Sequence record: PP724615.1
Origin: Escherichia phage HK6
Length of the DNA: 64,000 bases
Reading direction: 5' to 3' (one strand)
This document shows, in pieces, positions 9,836 to 42,009 of the stretch (positions are counted from its first letter, which is position 1; the number at the start of each line of letters is the position of its first letter). A model generated the notes under the pieces. That model did not search any database, had not been told where the DNA came from, and saw nothing but the letters and a program-made list of their open reading frames with translations. The translations under genes were made by a program, and so were the position numbers.

Positions 9836-10057
9836 TTATTCAATTACTTTAGCTCTAGCTACTTCTTTTAATAGAATATCTATGGAGGTGCTCAGCTCGT
9901 TATAATTGAATGGTTTATTTGGATTTGAGGTTACAATTTTCCACGCTAGGGTTGTCTTAGGACTTTCTTCCCCTTCCTTACGTGTAATCATATTAGCAGC
10001 ACTCAGTGAAGTACGATGTATTTTAGTTTTACGGCTCAGATGAACGACGTTTCCCAT
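9836..10057 (-). CDS. hypothetical protein (73 aa)
   Basis: Start chosen at 'MGNVVHL' with a GGGGAAGG RBS immediately after the phoH stop. The longer track ORF (to 10126) overlaps phoH. Confidence 0.4.
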   Translation of the reverse strand: MGNVVHLSRKTKIHRTSLSAANMITRKEGEESPKTTLAWKIVTSNPNKPFNYNELSTSIDILLKEVARAKVIE

Positions 10058-10058
10058 A

Positions 10059-10820
10059 TTACACCTTCCCCATGTCTTTAAAAATATCATAGAATGCTTT
10101 AGACTCAACAGAACGAACGTTATCAATCAATTCGATCATTGAGAATGGGGCATTTTCGTATTTCTCATAGACTTCCATAAGGAGTGCTAGACCTGAGTCA
10201 CCTTTAATGTCTTTCTGAGCTATATCTCCGCAGATAATTAAACGGCAGTCTTGTCCTACACGAGTTAGGAGACAAATCATTGCCTCAACGGAAATATTCT
10301 GAGCTTCATCGACAATTACATAGGAGTTGTTGAAAGTTCTGCCACGAGCATGTTCGATAGCCAAAAATTTAATTTTCTGACGTTCGACATATCCTTTATA
10401 TGCATGATCGCCGATGGCCCATTTCATACCATCAGCTATTGGCTCCAACCAAGGTTCTAGCTTTTCCGCTAGATCACCAGGAAGCATACCAAGAGACTTG
10501 CCTAGAGGTTCATTAGGACGTACGAGAATCACTTGCTCAATATCTGAGTGAATGTCTACGAGTTCCTGAGCTGCAAGAACGGACGGAATAAAGGTTTTAC
10601 CAGTACCCGGCTCACCGATACCCACAGTCACTGTGTTGTTCTTGATCATATTGATATATGATTTTTGCTCGCGGTTTTTACCTACTAGGGATTTAGCAAC
10701 TGGATTAGCGTAATCATTAGAAAAATCAGCCTGAATTACGTTGTTCTCATATTTGTTGCCACGCTTTCTTGAACCATTGCGGTTCTCTCTTTTTTGACGT
10801 GCTTTTCCCATAAATAACAC
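10059..10820 (-). CDS. phoH: PhoH-like ATPase
   Basis: Walker A 'GEPGTGKTF', Walker B 'VIVDEAQN' and PhoH core. 253 aa. First gene of the minus-strand operon. Confidence 0.85.
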   Translation of the reverse strand: MLFMGKARQKRENRNGSRKRGNKYENNVIQADFSNDYANPVAKSLVGKNREQKSYINMIKNNTVTVGIGEPGTGKTFIPSVLAAQELVDIHSDIEQVILVRPNEPLGKSLGMLPGDLAEKLEPWLEPIADGMKWAIGDHAYKGYVERQKIKFLAIEHARGRTFNNSYVIVDEAQNISVEAMICLLTRVGQDCRLIICGDIAQKDIKGDSGLALLMEVYEKYENAPFSMIELIDNVRSVESKAFYDIFKDMGKV

Positions 10821-10884
10821 TCCTATAGTGTACTTCGCTAACAGAGGATCAACAAAAAGATCTTGTTTATCAACTTACAAATAT

Positions 10885-10913
10885 ATTATACCAATATATA
10901 CAGTAAAAAGCAA
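10885..10913 (-). promoter_or_regulatory. early promoter TTGCTT-N17-TATAAT driving phoH operon
   Basis: On the minus strand: TTGCTT (10913-10908), 17-nt spacer, TATAAT (10890-10885). Confidence 0.6.
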
Positions 10914-11105
10914 CTACAATTTTAAATAAGCCTATGATATTGCATTTAAATAAAAAATTTGCTTGCTTTTAACGTGAGATGTGTGATACTAGATAATCAT
11001 TTTATATCGCGTGCACGAGTGCGTGATTATACAATTTTTAATAGAGATTGGCAAATAAAATTTTTTGACTCAGATCATGTTACAGAACTTTATAGTAAAA
11101 TATTG

Positions 11106-15838: not shown

Positions 15839-16231
15839 ATGGAACAAGTATATTGGCGTCAGATTGACCCTAGTTTGGTGAAGCGTGCGGAAAAGCTGCT
15901 ACAACGTTGGTTAGGGGTAAGGCAAGCCTCCTTCACTTTTCCGGAGCAGCAAACGGATGATCCCTGCATTGGCGTTTTCCTGTCTGGATATGCCGGGGAA
16001 TGGGAGATGGACTGGAATGAATTGTCAGCTATGGGTTTAATTGTTGCCCTAAACTTCTCTATATTCCATCCACGTGGTTTGGCCATATGTCGCGTGCCTG
16101 ATGACGGTTGTTCGCCCCATCTTTTACAGGTGGAAAATGATATTTGGGAGTACACTCCAGATATTCTCGCAGAAGCTAAAGAACAATTAAATCGTGTTGG
16201 GATTTATGTTCCGGGATTAAATGATGAATAA
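15839..16231 (+). CDS. hypothetical protein, paralog B (130 aa)
   Basis: Tandem paralog of 15401..15829, with a GGAGGAAGA-ATG RBS. Confidence 0.5.
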   Translation: MEQVYWRQIDPSLVKRAEKLLQRWLGVRQASFTFPEQQTDDPCIGVFLSGYAGEWEMDWNELSAMGLIVALNFSIFHPRGLAICRVPDDGCSPHLLQVENDIWEYTPDILAEAKEQLNRVGIYVPGLNDE

Positions 16232-16418
16232 GGAATTTTGGAAAATAAAAGGGAAGATTTCTAAGTGGAATACTACAGGGAAAATTAGTAAGTCTCTAGA
16301 GATAGAGATAGCTAGAATGTTTACTGATCCTAATTTTGATATAGAAAAACTAAGCAAAGTAGATGCTAAAAAAGTAGATAAGTATATAGAAGAGATTAGA
16401 AGTATTTTAAGTGTCTAA
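16221..16418 (+). CDS. hypothetical protein (65 aa)
   Basis: ORF followed by the terminator at 16426-16450. Confidence 0.35.
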   Translation: MMNKEFWKIKGKISKWNTTGKISKSLEIEIARMFTDPNFDIEKLSKVDAKKVDKYIEEIRSILSV

Positions 16419-16425
16419 TCCACGT

Positions 16426-16450
16426 AACCGAGTCATTTTGGCTCGGTTTT
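16426..16450 (+). terminator. rho-independent terminator
   Basis: AACCGAG-loop-CTCGGTT hairpin followed by TTTT. Confidence 0.55.
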
Positions 16451-16494
16451 ATCCGTACTCAAGACCAATGATAGCACCATCCGGAAAATTTTAC

Positions 16495-16523
16495 TTGCAG
16501 GATGCCCAAAATCTTGATATAAT
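16495..16523 (+). promoter_or_regulatory. early promoter TTGCAG-N17-TATAAT
   Basis: Followed by a leader-box variant 'ATTTATATTGAATTGAGAGA'. Starts the long leader of the helicase gene. Confidence 0.5.
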
Positions 16524-17021
16524 ATTTATATTGAATTGAGAGACATTAGTAAAAATTGATTTTGCTAATTTTTCTTGTTTACAATCCGCGATACGGAACA
16601 GTTAGGCTGCCCCATTAAGGGTTGTTTTAACTGTTACGTGTTAGTTTTTAAACAAATAGTTAATAGAATACTTAGCGATCTACATCCCGTAGGAACCCTG
16701 GTAAGGCCTCGAAGCAACCTAGTGTGAGGTGGTTGTGAAGTGAGACGGGAAGAGTGAAAAACTCTGAGAAGTGATGACGTAAGGTATACTGCATCTAGTA
16801 TGAGCTAGTACATGAAGCATTAGGTGAGCAAATCTGGCTTAGCGGCCATCCTCAAGGATTTGTGCGGTATAGTGAAGCGGCAGTGTAGCGTGAAAGGGGA
16901 AGTTGCCACCCCCCTTCAGTATTTGCGATTAATTGTTGAGAAATTGACAGTAACAGTTGTTCTATTCTTTCTGAATAGTCCTAAAGAAAACTTATTTCAT
17001 TTCCAACACAGGAGTATTGTT

Positions 17022-19811
17022 GTGTTCTCAATCCTACAAGGTCATGCAGGATTTCATCGCGACTTAGCCACAGGCATTTGGCGAGAAGTTAAAGCAGAAG
17101 ACTATCTTTTTGCTAAAAGATTTTCCTCAAAGCATCCTGAAGGTAAACCAGCTTCAATGCCCTTCAAGTTTGATGTAATTGATGAAGTTGATCCTCAAAC
17201 CCTAGTAGAAATGCTCCCTCTTATGAGACGTTTAACGTCTGACCCTCATATCGTTGCGGTACGAGGTCGATGTCTTGCACCCAAAAATAACGTGCGGCGT
17301 AAGAAGGGCAACTTTAATGTATCTAACCCAAGTCATATAATTGCATTGGACGTGGATGGTATTGTAGATACAGGTGGTTGTAACAAGTTTGATCTTGTTG
17401 GCATGGCTCGACATATTATTAGGATGTTAAATAGTATTAGTGAGGATATGTTTCCTCTTGATGCAGGGTTTATTGCTCATGCATCGTCTTCGGCTGGGCT
17501 AAAACCAGGTATCCGAATGCACTTAATACTAGAATCTAATGTTAAAGTAACTCAGGGTCAAATCAAATTCTTATTTACATCTATCAACGAAAGTAGTAGA
17601 CAAAAGTATGGCTTTGATATTGCCGACTTAGCTTATTACTCTTCCGTACAGCTCCATTATTTTGCAGATCCGTTATTTACCGATGGTATAGTAGATCCGT
17701 TTAAAGCGGAGGGTGCCTCACGTCTGGTATTTGTTAAGGGTTCTAAAGTAAATTTACCTAATAATCTGGTTGACTATGAAACAACTAGAGGTGAGTTTAA
17801 AGAGGAGTTCTACTCTTTACTCGACCAAATTAAGGGTAAAAAAGCTGCCTCTGATAAAGTAGAGGAAACTATCAGCGAACTAGAAGAAGCTGAGGATGGA
17901 GTGTACCTACGTATTATACCTAAACTCTATCATAGAGCTTTGGAGGATGGTGTTGATTTTGCATGGCTAGAAAAAGAAATCCGTCCAGCCTTATCAGAAT
18001 ATATTGCAACTAAAGATAATAGTCGCAATATTCAAGATTACTTTAATAACGGTCGTAAGCAGGCTCTAAAAGCATTTGTTAATAATTCTAAACGTGATAT
18101 ACCTGATGTTTTAAAAGGTATTCCACTTAAAAAGCTAGAAACTAACTCTCTAGAAACTGATAACTTCTTGAAATTAAATACTGTACCACCAGAAGGTTAT
18201 ATGACTTTTGTAAAAGCAAGTCTAGGTACAGGTAAAACTACGGCGGTTGTGCGTTGGTTAGATTCAGGAGTTATTAAAGGTAATTTCTTAGCAATTACCA
18301 ATACTCGAGCACTGGTATCTTCAAATGCTAAGAAATTTAGTGCAGGACAATATGATAAGTCTGTAGATATGCTTAATTTTAAGCGTGGCGCTATTGACCG
18401 TATGTCCACAACTATACATTCTTTGCATAAGTTCAAGAGTTTTATTGGTCAAATTGATGCAATCTTTATCGATGAATGTGATGCTGTAATGAATGACCTA
18501 TTATTCGCCCCGGTTGTTAAACAACGTCGTGAATGTATTCAGGTTCTTCGGGATATTCTTGCAACTGCAAAAATCATTATATTATCTGATGGGGATATTA
18601 GTGCAGAAACAATTGAAGCATACGGTTCTTTGATTGAGTTTGATAAACCAGTAGCATTTTATAATCATCACCGTAAGATGCTGTCAAAAGCTCATGCTTA
18701 TGAGTTCCCTGACGAATCCAGTATTTGGGTTGCACTTCAGACTTCTCTAGAGATGGGTGAGAAATCTATCCTAGTATCTGACTGTGGTCCAGATGAACTG
18801 AATGAGAAGGGCATGGCGTTGCGTCGTAATACGGGTGCGTTAGTTAAGGAAATCCACTCAAACTCTACGTCTGATGTAGATATTCGACGTATTCTGGATT
18901 ACACAACTAATGAGTTAATTGACCAACAAATTGATTGCTTATTATGTAGCCCATCCGTAACGAGCGGTGTTGACTTTAACTATTTTGATAACGTATTCGT
19001 TATTACTAGGACCAGTAACCAAGCGCCAAACATGCGTTTTCAAGCAATCAGGCGCGACCGTGGCGCTCAGAACATTTATTATTTTATTGATAAATCTACG
19101 AGTGGATTCTCCGCAGGTTCTGAGCAATATAACATTGACGAGGGTTGGCTGGAGTTAGCACAGCAATTATACGCACGTCGCAGAGAGCTGGAATCTAGGA
19201 ACTATACTAGTACTTTACGTTACTATTTGCTTGATCAGGGTGCAACTATTGATATTTTCAGTGAAAGCTGGGGAACTATCGAAGGTGCGGGGAAAGAATA
19301 TACAGAAGAGCGAATCAAAGCCATTTTGTATTCAACCCCTGATTATTGTGCTCCACGCCATGCAGATGCGTATGAAGCTAAACTACTTCTTGTACGCTAT
19401 TATCATCTTGAGTCTATTAAAGATGTAACAGTTGAGCATGTTGAACAATATATCAAGGATAAACCGAATGATCGAGCTGCATTCTTCCATAAGATGCACG
19501 AGATGTTCTGGGAAGATATTAAGAAGTGTTCAAATGTCACTATCAAACCATTCATAGAAGCTCTGAAAGGTAAGAAGAAAGATTTCTTCCTTAAAACAGG
19601 TCAGAGTGCTAACCCAAAATATGCAAGAATGTATCTTGGTATGATGGGTATTGGTAAGGATATGAACACGGAGAATATTGTAGACTGGTACAGAACCTAT
19701 TGTAAAATCGAGTGTATGCCAATCCCATATAAGTTTATGACTGATGAGGAGAAACATATGCATGATGAAGCAATGGCAGAGCTAGGTGCTAGAAATGACA
19801 GTGAAGAATAA
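17022..19811 (+). CDS. SF2 helicase, replication-origin-binding-protein type
   Basis: Walker A 'LGTGKTTAV' and DExD 'IFIDECDAV'. Start placed at an in-frame GTG 7 nt downstream of AGGAG. The track start at 16824 (GTG) has no RBS. ~929 aa. Confidence 0.6.
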   Translation: MFSILQGHAGFHRDLATGIWREVKAEDYLFAKRFSSKHPEGKPASMPFKFDVIDEVDPQTLVEMLPLMRRLTSDPHIVAVRGRCLAPKNNVRRKKGNFNVSNPSHIIALDVDGIVDTGGCNKFDLVGMARHIIRMLNSISEDMFPLDAGFIAHASSSAGLKPGIRMHLILESNVKVTQGQIKFLFTSINESSRQKYGFDIADLAYYSSVQLHYFADPLFTDGIVDPFKAEGASRLVFVKGSKVNLPNNLVDYETTRGEFKEEFYSLLDQIKGKKAASDKVEETISELEEAEDGVYLRIIPKLYHRALEDGVDFAWLEKEIRPALSEYIATKDNSRNIQDYFNNGRKQALKAFVNNSKRDIPDVLKGIPLKKLETNSLETDNFLKLNTVPPEGYMTFVKASLGTGKTTAVVRWLDSGVIKGNFLAITNTRALVSSNAKKFSAGQYDKSVDMLNFKRGAIDRMSTTIHSLHKFKSFIGQIDAIFIDECDAVMNDLLFAPVVKQRRECIQVLRDILATAKIIILSDGDISAETIEAYGSLIEFDKPVAFYNHHRKMLSKAHAYEFPDESSIWVALQTSLEMGEKSILVSDCGPDELNEKGMALRRNTGALVKEIHSNSTSDVDIRRILDYTTNELIDQQIDCLLCSPSVTSGVDFNYFDNVFVITRTSNQAPNMRFQAIRRDRGAQNIYYFIDKSTSGFSAGSEQYNIDEGWLELAQQLYARRRELESRNYTSTLRYYLLDQGATIDIFSESWGTIEGAGKEYTEERIKAILYSTPDYCAPRHADAYEAKLLLVRYYHLESIKDVTVEHVEQYIKDKPNDRAAFFHKMHEMFWEDIKKCSNVTIKPFIEALKGKKKDFFLKTGQSANPKYARMYLGMMGIGKDMNTENIVDWYRTYCKIECMPIPYKFMTDEEKHMHDEAMAELGARNDSEE

Positions 19812-38920: not shown

Positions 38921-39086
38921 TTACAGGGCTTTAAGTTCTTCAGCGAAGTTACCGCGACCACCCCAACCGTTACCGATCCAGAAACCAATCAAACCACCAA
39001 TTGCATCACCGATACCAGCCGCACCAGCTTCGCTACCAAAGCCGTCACCGCCCAGATTGGTAGGTAAAAGAGTCAAGTCAGACATA
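38921..39086 (-). CDS. Gly-rich small hydrophobic protein (54 aa), not in ORF track
   Basis: ATG preceded by GGAG at -8. Product MSDLTLLPTNLGGDGFGSEAGAAGIGDAIGGLIGFWIGNGWGGRGNFAEELKAL. An isolated gene between two terminators. Confidence 0.45.
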
Positions 39087-39306
39087 AGAAAATCTCCATA
39101 TATGGGTTGTTAGACGGATGTAACCAGTTGGTTACACTGGTAAGTATACTCGCTAACATACTATTTACCATGATATGCGTGTAAATAAATTGTAAATAGC
39201 CTGGCATTGGTACTCCTATAATGCAATGGACGCCATGACTTGAACAAAAGGAGGGAGTTATGTTTAAACGCGGTGCGGTCATAGGTAAGGCGAGAAAGTG
39301 ACAACT

Positions 39307-39339
39307 AAAAAAAAAAAAAAAAGGAGCCAAACGGCTCCT
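39307..39339 (-). terminator. late-operon terminator (hairpin + U16)
   Basis: On the minus strand, a GGAGCC-GTTT-GGCTCC hairpin followed by 16 T, immediately after the tail-fiber stop. Confidence 0.7.
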
Positions 39340-39351
39340 TAATTATTGTGG

Positions 39352-42009
39352 TTATGGCAGATCGTTGTTAACCACATTGCCCTTCAACGCAGCTATCTCC
39401 GCTTTCAAACTATCAATTTCTGCTTTGAGCGCTTGAGTGGCGCCCATCAAGTCCATAATAATAGGGTTAGTATCAATTGAAGGTCTGTCTCGGGTCTTCT
39501 GTGAAACAATTTTCTTCTCGACTTCACGACGAATAAATTTCTGTTCAATGCGTTGTTCTTTGATTTGTTCTGTAATACCAGTTTCGGGGTCGGTATAATC
39601 TACAGTAACCTCTACAGGTACATCCTCGTATATATCCTTATAAACATCCTCGTATACATCCTCATAAATCTCTTCATTGTGCTTCACATATTGTGGGGTG
39701 ACTTTCTCCGATTCTTCTGCAATAATACCAAATCTTATTCTTTCTTGTTCATCATCCTTATAAATAAAAGTGACCATGCGTTGTGCCATGATGCGGTTTA
39801 AAGCATCAATAGGATTACCGTCATTGATCTCCTTTTTATATGCTAAGCCAGATGTTCCTTGCAGTGCAAGGGTTCCGGCAGCACTCGGAAGCCTAATCCA
39901 ATACTCAGGCGAACCTGCTGGGGTATATGTTTGAAATCCATAGCTCCCTACAGTTTCGCTAAATCCAACACGGGTTCGAATAACTCCATTTGCTGCTAAG
40001 TTACAAGCATAAGACGCTGCACCATTGGATCTAAACGTTGCAGCGTCGGTTCCTGCTTCCCCGCCACCTGCTACAATCCGCCCGGTAATATAGGTAGAGA
40101 ACGCAAGTGTAATCCCAGTACCCGCACCCCCAATGATTACCGGAGTAGAATGATACGTGCCATCCTCATTGTAGTAGTAGAATGCATAGGCCCCGCTGGC
40201 AGCATGCCCTGATCGCCATCTTACAGTAGATGGACTGGAAGGTCCAGTATAGGCTGTGTAAGCCGTACCCGCACCCGTCGCTCTAACTAATAGGCTGTCT
40301 TGACTATAGCTCCCAGTTGTCCTGAGCTGACCAACTTCCCCAAATGAATTAGTCTTGTGAGATGGTAGCGTGACTGTTTTAGCTGAAGCGCTGTAGTTAA
40401 AGACAGCATTAGTGCTACTAGTATTATTCTCCTGGAGTCGTATGCTACCGCCATCCATAACCATAACATAGCCAGTTACATCACCTGCGGCGTCAACTTC
40501 TTCAAATTTAATTGTTGGGTTAGCACTCTTGATTAAAAGAGGGTCACTAGCGGTCGCCCCAAATTCTGCATTAAGGTTAAACTTCTGCTTTTTGGTAAAA
40601 GTATTTTCAGCACCAAGTCTAGCTATGCTGGAAGGGTCCATTGAATCCACATACCCTTTCGCACGGTTAGCTTCCTCTGTTGCTAGGGTAGCTTTCTGCC
40701 CTGCGGTTGTAGCGCTGCCTGCGGCTGCTGTAGCTTGTTTCACCGCTTCGGTTGCACTAGCACCCGCTTGAGTTGCAGAAGCTGCGGCAGCGTCTTTTAG
40801 TGGGGTTATTGCATTAATTGCTTCCGTCTTAGCTGTATTAACTTCTTTGACTGCGTCGGCTTTAGCTGTTGCGACTTCAGTCAACGCGGAGTCTTTAATT
40901 GCTTGAGTATCTGTTTTTAACTGAGTAACGTCAGCCTTAATCTGAGTAACTGTAGCTACAGCAGCGTTAGTTGTGTTAGCAGACCCCGCCGCGTCAGCTT
41001 GTGCTTGTCTAGCAGCCTCTTCACTAGCTTTTGAGTTAGTTTCACTAGCTTTTGAGTTAGTTTCTGAATTTTTTGCTGCAGCAGCAGCAGCAGTAGCCTG
41101 CGTAGCGAATATTTCTGCCTCATCCCTGAATCCTTTGGAATCAGAAGCAGATGCAGCACTACTAGCAGCGTTAGTTTCTGAAGTTTTAGCTGCGGAAGCG
41201 GATGCAGCAGCGTTAGTTTCTGAAGCTTTTGCAGCTGCAGCAGAAGCAGCCGCAGCCGTTTCTGAGGTTTTAGCCGCTGAAGCAGAAGCAGACGCAGCAG
41301 TTTTGCTACTATTAGCATTAGTCTCAGAAGTTTTAGCCGCTGTTTCACTAGCTTTTGCATTAGTCTCAGAAGTTTTAGCTGCGGTTTCACTAGCTTTTGC
41401 GTTGGTTTCTGAAATTTTTGCTGCTGTTTCACTAGCTTTTGCATTAGTCTCAGAAGTCTTAGCAGCTTTAGCACTGTTAGCAGAAGCAGTAGCAGAAGAA
41501 GCAGAAGCAGTAGCAGAAGAAACAGACTGAGCTGCAGAAGAAGCAGACTGAGTTGCAGATTGTTGAGAAGATCCTGCGGAAATTTCTGCTTCATTCTCAG
41601 AAGTTTTAGCCGCTATTTCACTTGCTTTTGCGTTAGTTTCTGAAGTTTTAGCCGCTATTTCACTTGCTTTTGCATTGGTCTCAGAAGTCTTAGCAGCTTT
41701 AGCACTATTAGCCGAAGCAGTAGCAGAAGACGCAGACTGAGTTGCAGATTGCTGGGAAGATGTTGCGGAAATTTCAGCTTCATTCTCAGAGTCTTTAGCA
41801 CTTAATTCTGACTGTTTAGCATTAATCTCAGATTGCTTAGCTGCTGCAGCGGATGCTTTAGAGGACTCTATAGCAGAGGTTAGCTCTGCAGCAGTAATGG
41901 AGCTAATTGTATTCCCAAGAACTACAGTGTATTTAGGGTATTTACTTGCAGTTACACTATTTTGGTCCATAGTGACCATTTGTTGTAAAATTATTTTCGT
42001 TATAGCCAT
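39352..42009 (-). CDS. ltf: L-shaped tail fiber protein (pb1/Ltf-like) with C-terminal intramolecular chaperone domain
   Basis: N-terminal '[18 protein letters not shown]', ~10 tandem 'AKTSETNAKASE(T/I)A' Ala-rich repeats, a Gly/Thr/Ser-rich beta region and a C-terminal S74-type chaperone-like domain (...GLAYKKEINDGNPIDALNRIMAQ...). 885 aa. Confidence 0.75.
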   Translation of the reverse strand: MAITKIILQQMVTMDQNSVTASKYPKYTVVLGNTISSITAAELTSAIESSKASAAAAKQSEINAKQSELSAKDSENEAEISATSSQQSATQSASSATASANSAKAAKTSETNAKASEIAAKTSETNAKASEIAAKTSENEAEISAGSSQQSATQSASSAAQSVSSATASASSATASANSAKAAKTSETNAKASETAAKISETNAKASETAAKTSETNAKASETAAKTSETNANSSKTAASASASAAKTSETAAAASAAAAKASETNAAASASAAKTSETNAASSAASASDSKGFRDEAEIFATQATAAAAAAKNSETNSKASETNSKASEEAARQAQADAAGSANTTNAAVATVTQIKADVTQLKTDTQAIKDSALTEVATAKADAVKEVNTAKTEAINAITPLKDAAAASATQAGASATEAVKQATAAAGSATTAGQKATLATEEANRAKGYVDSMDPSSIARLGAENTFTKKQKFNLNAEFGATASDPLLIKSANPTIKFEEVDAAGDVTGYVMVMDGGSIRLQENNTSSTNAVFNYSASAKTVTLPSHKTNSFGEVGQLRTTGSYSQDSLLVRATGAGTAYTAYTGPSSPSTVRWRSGHAASGAYAFYYYNEDGTYHSTPVIIGGAGTGITLAFSTYITGRIVAGGGEAGTDAATFRSNGAASYACNLAANGVIRTRVGFSETVGSYGFQTYTPAGSPEYWIRLPSAAGTLALQGTSGLAYKKEINDGNPIDALNRIMAQRMVTFIYKDDEQERIRFGIIAEESEKVTPQYVKHNEEIYEDVYEDVYKDIYEDVPVEVTVDYTDPETGITEQIKEQRIEQKFIRREVEKKIVSQKTRDRPSIDTNPIIMDLMGATQALKAEIDSLKAEIAALKGNVVNNDLP

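Follow-up and report, generated by a model that had tools for sequence, protein, structure and literature searches.

The leader that precedes the helicase gene D2 in Escherichia phage HK6 is neither an iteron-type replication origin nor a gene-model problem; it represents an uncatalogued family of large, covariation-supported RNAs in front of a putative initiator helicase. We analysed a 64,000-nt stretch of this T5-like phage (PP724615.1, referred to as the window), in which the order of a terminator, a promoter, about 490 nt free of open reading frames (ORFs), and a Shine-Dalgarno sequence with a GTG codon can be read straight from the sequence. A first inspection of the same DNA (the original prediction) had described the interval as a purine-rich, structured leader and had left the choice between an origin with iteron-like repeats, a regulatory 5' untranslated region and an independent non-coding RNA. 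The structured non-coding leader was borne out by covariation in two alignments and by the lack of a conserved ORF. The proposed purine richness proved weak: purines make up 53% of the leader and 58% of its core, compared with up to 63% in other 300-nt segments of HK6.

Compensatory changes reveal a conserved plus-strand RNA fold

In an alignment of nine relatives, identity was 100% over the ~115 nt transcribed first (16525-16640) and over the final ~75 nt, and these 5' and 3' flanks are shared even by phages with differing D2 genes. The core of ~310 nt occurs in two forms of equal length, window-type and T5-type, which are ~50% identical and have common anchors such as GGCTTAGCGGCC. Covariation was analysed in alignment A2, composed of 12 sequences of the two types and folded with RNAalifold, and in alignment A4, in which the addition of the Pectobacterium phages DU_PP_V and My1 and of Klebsiella T5-like phages gave five clades. 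As controls, pairing partners were slid by 1-3 columns and columns were shuffled 500 times. MAFFT misaligned a further, short set (A3), which was left out of the covariation analysis.

For A2, 105 pairs were predicted and 99.5% of the cells were paired, compared with 35-50% in the slid controls; 21 pairs were compensatory (0-3 upon sliding), and none of the 500 shuffles reached the observed covariation. The clades added in A4 have cores that are 39-52% identical to the HK6 core, and the cores of all five clades are 40-63% identical overall, yet the same helices are kept. Here, 93% of the cells of 66 consensus pairs were paired (36-49% in slid controls), 35 of the 66 pairs were compensatory (9-13 in slid controls), and again 0 of 500 shuffles scored as high. 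A separate alignment of our own agrees with this result, with 89% of cells paired against ~40% and 58 compensatory pairs against ~20. The core sequence evolves fast while the structure stays, and recent double changes are found even within the window-type clade, in the helices P4 and P9 described below.

G·U pairs account for 17-19% of the paired cells and occur in 31-34 different pairs. On the opposite strand each of them would become an A·C mismatch, which assigns the fold to the + strand RNA; this is the strand transcribed from the promoter. Folding of single sequences did not tell the strands apart (z-scores of -2.25 for the + and -2.91 for the - strand). Our comparative data show that 16530-17021 specifies a conserved, + strand-specific, multi-helix RNA of ~490 nt, predicted to form the 5' leader of the D2 transcript.

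Helix architecture of the leader RNA

All helices are given on the + strand. The 5' hairpin P1 (16538-16576, GAGAGACAUUAGUAAAA/UUUUGCUAAUUUUUCUU) comprises 16 bp in A2, and in A4 7 of its 19 pairs are changed on both sides across clades. The next hairpin, P2 (16582-16624), carries the most conserved sequence of the RNA, AUAC(G/A)GAACAGUnnGGCUGC, and has covarying pairs at 71/97 and 76/92. The ~310-nt core, which contains P4, P8 and P9, is closed by the long-range helix P3. Its 5' strand (16628-16661) consists of UAACUGUUAC with extensions at 16646-16649 and 16653-16661 and pairs with the 3' strand at 16927-16959 (GAUUAAUUG ... GAAA ... GUAACAGUUG); within P3, the 9 nt of 16629-16637 are 100% complementary to 16950-16958. 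Compensation in P3 includes AU to GC (A2 columns 111/438), AU to UA (126/425), and GU to CG together with CG to AU (131-132/418-419). At the place of P3, My1 has an entirely different 14-bp helix, and the Klebsiella phages have GGCUUA/UAAGCU.

Nested in P3, P4 joins 16670-16685 to 16883-16897 and corresponds to helix 8 of A2, in which 4 of 9 pairs are compensatory; its recent double change is CUACAU/GUGUAG in HK6 versus CUGCGU/GCGCAG in close window-type relatives. P8 (16828-16863) is formed by the helix GCAAAUCU/GGAUUUGU around the hairpin GGCU-UAGC-GGCC, with a 3' bulge and the invariant tip CUUAGCGG, and 7 of its 8 outer pairs are compensatory across the five clades. The only invariant block in alignments A3 and A5 is CTTAGCGG. 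The hairpin P9 (16894-16917, AAGGGG-AAGUUGCCA-CCCCUU) shows, among window-type phages, a compensatory exchange of G-C for U-A (GGGG/CCCC versus GUGG/CCAC), and its loop (A)GUUGCCA is common to HK6, DU_PP_V and My1. Finally, P10 (16962-16978, CUAUUC-UUUCU-GAAUAG) lies in the invariant 3' block, is itself invariant in the window-type and T5-type clades and has the counterpart CUAUC/GAUAG in Klebsiella phages. It is separated from the Shine-Dalgarno sequence and GUG by 30 nt and is not a terminator, because it has no U-tract.

An 8-bp stem that had been pointed out in the leader needs to be reinterpreted. The inverted repeat does exist, formed by segment A (AACAGTTA, 16597) and segment B (TAACTGTT, 16628), and extends to 12 nt with 92% complementarity; however, it is not an evolutionarily maintained pairing, as one of its base pairs is lost in most T5-type phages. 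In these, a G to A change in B is compensated by a C to U change in a third segment, A' (GTAACAGTT at 16950), whereas A is unchanged and would mismatch. The calculated A:B duplex has -9.8 kcal/mol in HK6 and -3.8 kcal/mol in T5-type phages, compared with -12.3 and -10.8 kcal/mol for B:A', the covarying helix. These changes support pairing of B, the 3' arm of the proposed stem, with 16950-16959 (A') instead.

The RNA is transcribed from a conserved early promoter into D2

The promoter proposed at 16495-16523 (+ strand) was confirmed as an early sigma-70 promoter by its sequence, by the promoter annotated at this position in the T5 record and by its conservation. It consists of a -35 element, TTGCAG (16495-16500), a 17-nt spacer and an extended -10 element, TGaTATAAT (hexamer at 16518-16523), and a TTGCAx-N17-TATAAT promoter is located 480-770 nt 5' of D2 in every clade examined. 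A simple promoter scan overlooked it, since the -35 element matches at only 3 of 6 positions. Transcription probably starts near 16528-16531. The initial transcribed sequence is similar to that of the classical T5 N25 promoter; because of this likeness, the conserved GAGAG may serve promoter escape besides its part in P1. The promoter and its first ~20 transcribed nt (…TTGAGAGA…, 16485-16545) are also present at a second site in Klebsiella T5-like genomes.

Upstream, an intrinsic terminator (16426-16452, + strand) ends the preceding unit. Its 10-bp stem and 3-nt loop (AACCGAGTCA-TTT-TGGCTCGGTT, 16426-16448, -13.5 kcal/mol), followed by TTTAT, correspond to the terminator predicted at 16426-16450. 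The element is kept 5' of the promoter in all aligned relatives but AKFV33, and the HdH2 record annotates a terminator there; terminator-like hairpins with T-runs can also be read from the sequences of Klebsiella and Pectobacterium phages at the same place. In AKFV33 (L009:116-607; also in L013, L021, L026 and L034), terminator and promoter have given way to a homing-endonuclease gene that brings an unrelated promoter of its own (TTGCAAGGGAGTATTATTTTATAGTATAAT). The replacement reaches the conserved GAGAGAC, so that the distance to the transcription start is preserved.

Downstream of the promoter, the reported lack of an ORF over about 500 nt holds, with 6-21 stops in every frame, and a terminator scan found none between promoter and D2 in HK6. 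The RNA runs without a terminator into the D2 ribosome-binding site and GTG, which makes it the 5' leader of the D2 mRNA. Judged by these signals, a strong early sigma-70 promoter drives rightward transcription of 16530-17021.

D2 starts at GTG 17022

The gene 3' of the leader (17022-19811, + strand, 929 aa) is 88% identical in amino acid sequence to T5 D2, the "origin-binding-type" bipolar helicase. It encodes a UL9-like superfamily 2 (SF2) protein annotated as "replication origin binding", with a match to Pfam PF02399 (Herpes_ori_bp) at residues 394-533 (E = 3e-7) and an end-to-end match to PHROG 3712 (residues 1-926). The mechanical ORF list begins this gene at GTG 16824, which, as had been remarked, has no ribosome-binding site, whereas AGGAG (17010-17014) is indeed found 7 nt before the in-frame GTG at 17022-17024. 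A Shine-Dalgarno sequence and the equivalent start codon are found in all clades, the T5 reference annotation begins D2 at the same GTG, and Wong et al. (2013, PMC3632103) amplified D2 from it (primer ...GTGTTTTCTATCCTCCAAGG) and purified an active helicase. Moreover, all homologues, down to those of Vibrio and Aeromonas phages, have the N-terminus MF(S/T/V)IL at the equivalent codon. On these comparisons the helicase starts at GTG 17022 and not at 16824. The suggested revision of the start is right in its position, but it restores the existing T5 reference start and corrects the ORF list only.

We give practically no credence to a protein-coding function of the leader, whether as small conserved ORFs or as a helicase N-terminus extended to GTG 16824. 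The frame is open for 66 codons 5' of 17022, but in the HK6 stretch only: relatives of the same leader type have an in-frame stop 30-32 codons upstream of the D2 start (30 in L005), T5 has one at 26 codons and further clades have theirs at 0-13, with 0-42 codons as the full span outside the window-type clade. The D2-family profile, like the MF(S/T)IL N-terminus in all clades, begins at 17022 and has no coverage 5' of it. Small ORFs have been called at the locus in some database records, but they vary in strand and position.

The annotation of the locus is inconsistent in general. In Th1 (MN026741), D2 begins 45 codons late, while GEC_vB_N3 (MW006478) extends it upstream; other records, PMBT29 (PP554579) being among the inconsistent ones, place small "hypothetical proteins" inside the RNA, three on the + strand or two on the - strand. 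In DU_PP_V (NC_047887), a helicase annotation appears to be placed under the RNA region.

The locus does not have the features of an iteron origin

The original prediction considered an origin whose iteron-like repeats would be recognised by D2 as double-stranded DNA. The UL9-type origin-binding-protein domain of D2 is in line with such an origin, and so is the enrichment of the short repeats on which it was based: GTGAR occurs 7 times in 16700-16900 (0.94 expected) and GTGARG 3 times (0.31 expected, P = 0.004). However, these do not form an iteron array. A repeat search at the locus yielded a single 2-copy 10-mer and no repeat array; direct repeats of ~12-22 bp in at least three copies, with conservation at the DNA level, are lacking. 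GTGAR is replaced by GCGAA at the aligned positions in T5-type and Klebsiella phages. GUGA and GCGA both satisfy the consensus of GNRA loops, so that their exchange points to RNA-level motifs rather than DNA repeats, as does the compensatory and G·U-tolerant mode of conservation. Furthermore, the DnaA box TTWTNCACA is absent from 16400-17100 and occurs 4 times in the whole window (8 expected). Cumulative GC skew follows gene orientation, with a minimum at ~10.5 kb and a maximum at ~39.5 kb, and does not turn at 16.5 kb; the extremes at ~10000-11000 and ~39000-40000 probably mark switches of transcription direction between gene blocks. The resemblance to the herpesvirus origins oriS and oriL lies in the neighbouring gene, D2 being a homologue of UL9 (PMC3632103), but repeated duplex recognition boxes of the type of boxes I, II and III are lacking in HK6, and conservation is at the RNA level. 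With neither repeat array nor DnaA box nor local skew switch, an iteron-type origin recognised by the helicase is very improbable.

We also considered a transcription-dependent origin, in which the early transcript would form a persistent R-loop or primer and open the DNA for loading of D2. In this scenario, the RNA would be a new class of large functional RNA and the missing cis element of T5 replication initiation. D2 requires tailed or forked substrates, and the folded early transcript, by invading its template or remaining hybridised with it, would make a forked substrate for its loading. Like ColE1 RNA II, T4 oriF and oriG and T7 phi1.1A/B, the locus provides a promoter-driven, structured non-coding transcript of about 500 nt beside replication functions, a parallel to RNA II that we draw from general knowledge. 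The first 60 transcribed nt appear AT-rich by eye and are invariant across the aligned Tequintavirus-like phages. The leader is located at ~48-49% of the T5 genome (L029 coordinates), that is, near the genome centre, where T5 origins are reported to have been mapped by electron microscopy. Likewise, PMC3632103 cites multiple internal bidirectional T5 origins, and Wong et al. suggest a role in initiation for the UL9-like D2.

Several observations speak against an R-loop origin. The skew extremes lie elsewhere than 16.5 kb, and we found no antisense promoter or RNA I-like element on the - strand, the nearest promoter-like sites beginning at 16410 and 17561, outside the RNA; no sequence homology to the ColE1, T4 or T7 origins is known. 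In Klebsiella and Pectobacterium phages the 5' part is not AT-rich by eye, and the elaborate, tertiary-looking core exceeds what R-loops are known to need. Our literature search found neither a description of a leader RNA in T5-like phages nor a T5 origin mapped to sequence resolution. Overall, we consider a role of the RNA in opening an origin improbable, and equally doubtful that it is the missing initiation element. If true, it would be a phage analogue of ColE1 RNA II with an ornate, fast co-evolving core that gives phage-initiator specificity.

The RNA matches no known family and is confined to T5-like phages

A search with the 4227 models of Rfam 15, which include GOLLD, ROOL, OLE, RNase P, group I and II introns, riboswitches and ribozymes, gave no gathering-level match in the window. 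At E ≤10, only three C/D-box snoRNA models matched within 16400-17100, with 10-17 bits compared with thresholds of 36-54 (E 0.16-9.6), and E-value searches of seven homologous loci returned nothing relevant. ARAGORN detected no tRNA or tmRNA in the window or in 10 homologous loci, and at this locus the ~50 GenBank annotations sampled show neither an RNA nor an origin.

The nucleotide search matched region 16400-17100 to 535 phage records, with 99.6% identity to Salmonella phage Th1. Each of 32 T5-like viral contigs contains a single copy of the P2 motif. When metagenomes and 596 Gb of bacterial genomes were searched, the combination of the P2 motif with GAGAG upstream and CTTAGCGG ~225 nt downstream was found only in T5-like contigs; P2-motif hits elsewhere lack the second motif, and their number equals the chance expectation. 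A covariance model of P8-P9 (R1) scores 97 bits at 16822-16919 and 12.5 bits at the next best site of the window. It recovers only its five source clades, plus a 12-bit local hit in Providencia. Consistent with this, an nhmmer profile of the five-clade alignment found no second copy in the window and did not detect the leaders of Proteus, Providencia, Vibrio and Aeromonas phages. In all genomes seen, the RNA is located directly 5' of D2, once per genome, and its type (window-type or T5-type) follows the type of D2 (163 versus 162 records). By these searches, it constitutes an uncatalogued RNA family restricted to T5-like phages.

Long leaders also occur in distant Demerecviridae. In Proteus, Providencia, several Vibrio phages and Aeromonas phage TS3, a strong promoter is followed by 500 to >1400 ORF-free nt before the D2 homologue, and some of these leaders contain the CUUAGCGG hairpin; homology to the T5-like RNA is only suggested. 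Vibrio phage D254 has a 240-aa ORF directly 5' of the helicase gene instead of an ORF-free leader. In Aeromonas vB_AdhS_TS3 (L049:1-1508), at least 1.5 kb 5' of the helicase gene are without an ORF >55 aa and contain three (C/T)TTAGCGG motifs. Part of this leader (AUCUGAUAU..GGGG(C/U)GG) resembles the Proteus leader.

Within T5-like genomes, 51 records (~10%) have an optional module of 97 nt between P1 and P2, after the equivalent of 16576/16577 (e.g. L008:700-800, L011 and L038). It is flanked by duplicated TTTTTCTT, has its own 8-bp hairpin (AUUUACGG/CCGUAAAU), and occupies one site per genome, whether the background is window-type or T5-type. In GEC_vB_N3 (L007:~770-790), the 7-nt sequence CAATCCG is duplicated in tandem at the 5' base of P2.

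Possible functions of the leader RNA

We tentatively favour a cis-acting leader domain that governs D2 synthesis, a reading that is quite possible though short of probable. The leader would act as RNA, in cis, and its folded domain would set the D2 output of a very strong promoter combined with a weak GUG start. To do so, it might bind a phage or host factor, possibly D2 itself, protect and stabilise the 5' end of the transcript, or engage in long-range 5'-3' pairing near the D2 ribosome-binding site. A candidate for the latter is the pairing of 16566-16576, the 3' strand of P1, with 16984-16994; this strand is complementary to the conserved AAGAAAA ~20 nt 5' of the Shine-Dalgarno sequence, and the pairing shows no covariation. 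In favour of this reading, the RNA lies between promoter and start codon on the same strand and has a conserved, covariation-supported fold. We also count the strict adjacency to D2, the RNA type tracking the D2 type, and the promoter position kept in all clades. Extra constraint near the ribosome-binding site is indicated by the invariant flanks and by the complementarity of P1 to AAGAAAA. Riboswitches, T-boxes, ribosomal-protein leaders and the operators of T4 genes 32 and 43 likewise have a promoter-to-start-codon position and a covarying, conserved fold. However, the HK6 RNA is 2-5 times larger than such leaders, and we found neither a conserved terminator/antiterminator nor a conserved helix sequestering the Shine-Dalgarno sequence.

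Other points weigh against a cis-regulatory role. No conserved expression platform was found: sequestering pairings differ among clades, and the Shine-Dalgarno/GUG hairpin (17007-17024) is found only in Tequintavirus-like phages. The alternative pairings (A:B versus B:A', and the P1 3' strand with AAGAAAA) are candidates that show no covariation as alternatives. To our knowledge, ~490 nt with at least 10 helices far exceeds known bacterial and phage cis-regulators, and the literature search found no experimental data on transcript ends or regulation. In addition, the Proteus Stubb/PM135 group has two perfect 12/12 sigma-70 promoters, one (L039:705-733) starting a 700-nt ORF-free structured region, the other (L039:1435-1464) located 35 nt before the D2 start and thus between the long leader and D2. 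In Aeromonas TS3, a terminator-like hairpin with a T-run is seen by eye just before the helicase gene; the terminator scan did not report it. If these leaders are homologous to the HK6 RNA, the D2 gene of those phages would be expressed without relying on a leader in cis.

The same two observations, with their homology only suggested, indicate that long leaders can be units apart from D2 and fit an independent, trans-acting large structured RNA. Such an RNA would share its transcript with D2 until freed by processing, or would be terminated in certain lineages. Its role would be that of a ribozyme, of a decoy or anti-defence RNA, or of a scaffold for a ribonucleoprotein, and its adjacency to D2 would be mere synteny. 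Its size and complexity resemble those of large ornate RNAs more than those of riboswitches, with at least 10 helices, the invariant CUUAGCGG loop and GNRA-like GYGA motifs; the core changes fast in sequence while the structure is kept, and the optional 97-nt hairpin module of 51 genomes resembles an expansion segment. Similar to GOLLD, ROOL and OLE (Rfam; cryo-electron microscopy, PMC12286853), the HK6 RNA is several hundred nt long, has many covarying helices, is phage-borne and was found comparatively. In contrast to these, it matches none of their covariance models, is an mRNA leader rather than a free-standing gene near tRNAs, and is restricted to one phage family. The traits of a large ornate RNA, more than 400 nt and many covarying helices, are present, but no terminator or obvious 3'-end signal precedes D2 in Tequintavirus, including HK6, or in Klebsiella and Pectobacterium phages. 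Together with the strict adjacency to D2 in all genomes seen and the lack of a match to any known RNA family, this makes a trans-acting RNA rather unlikely. An improbable variant of the initiation-element reading would be a free ornate RNA or ribozyme of entirely new activity.

Implications for T5-like phages

T5 belongs to the classical model phages, and T5-like phages rank with those most often isolated on Salmonella, E. coli and Klebsiella. The RNA is present in more than 500 database genomes, where it is either left unannotated or mistaken for small hypothetical ORFs or for a helicase of greater or smaller length. Recognition of the leader fixes the D2 gene model, which is wrong in several GenBank records, and adds a large, well-supported structured RNA family to the very few known from virulent phages. 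It also provides a sequence-defined candidate for control of the T5 initiator helicase and for the start of replication near the genome centre. The two "allelic" cores, ~50% identical with the same fold and identical flanks, represent a natural swap experiment.

Additional observations at the locus

Within the core, 16741-16805 gives weak matches to archaeal C/D-box sRNA models, which stem from CUGA...GUGAUGA. A C/D-box snoRNA identity was rejected, as the hits to GUGAUGA ... CUGA are far below threshold; the motif could form a kink-turn-like internal loop. Window-type phages share the motif CUGAGAAGUG(A/U)U with DU_PP_V and My1, and in Klebsiella phages it takes the form CCAAGAAGUGAAG. Upstream of the leader, an ORF of 65 aa (16221-16418; PHROG 29527, function unknown) lies between the T5p105 homologue and the terminator. 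Window-type phages have this ORF; T5 and HdH2 lack it.

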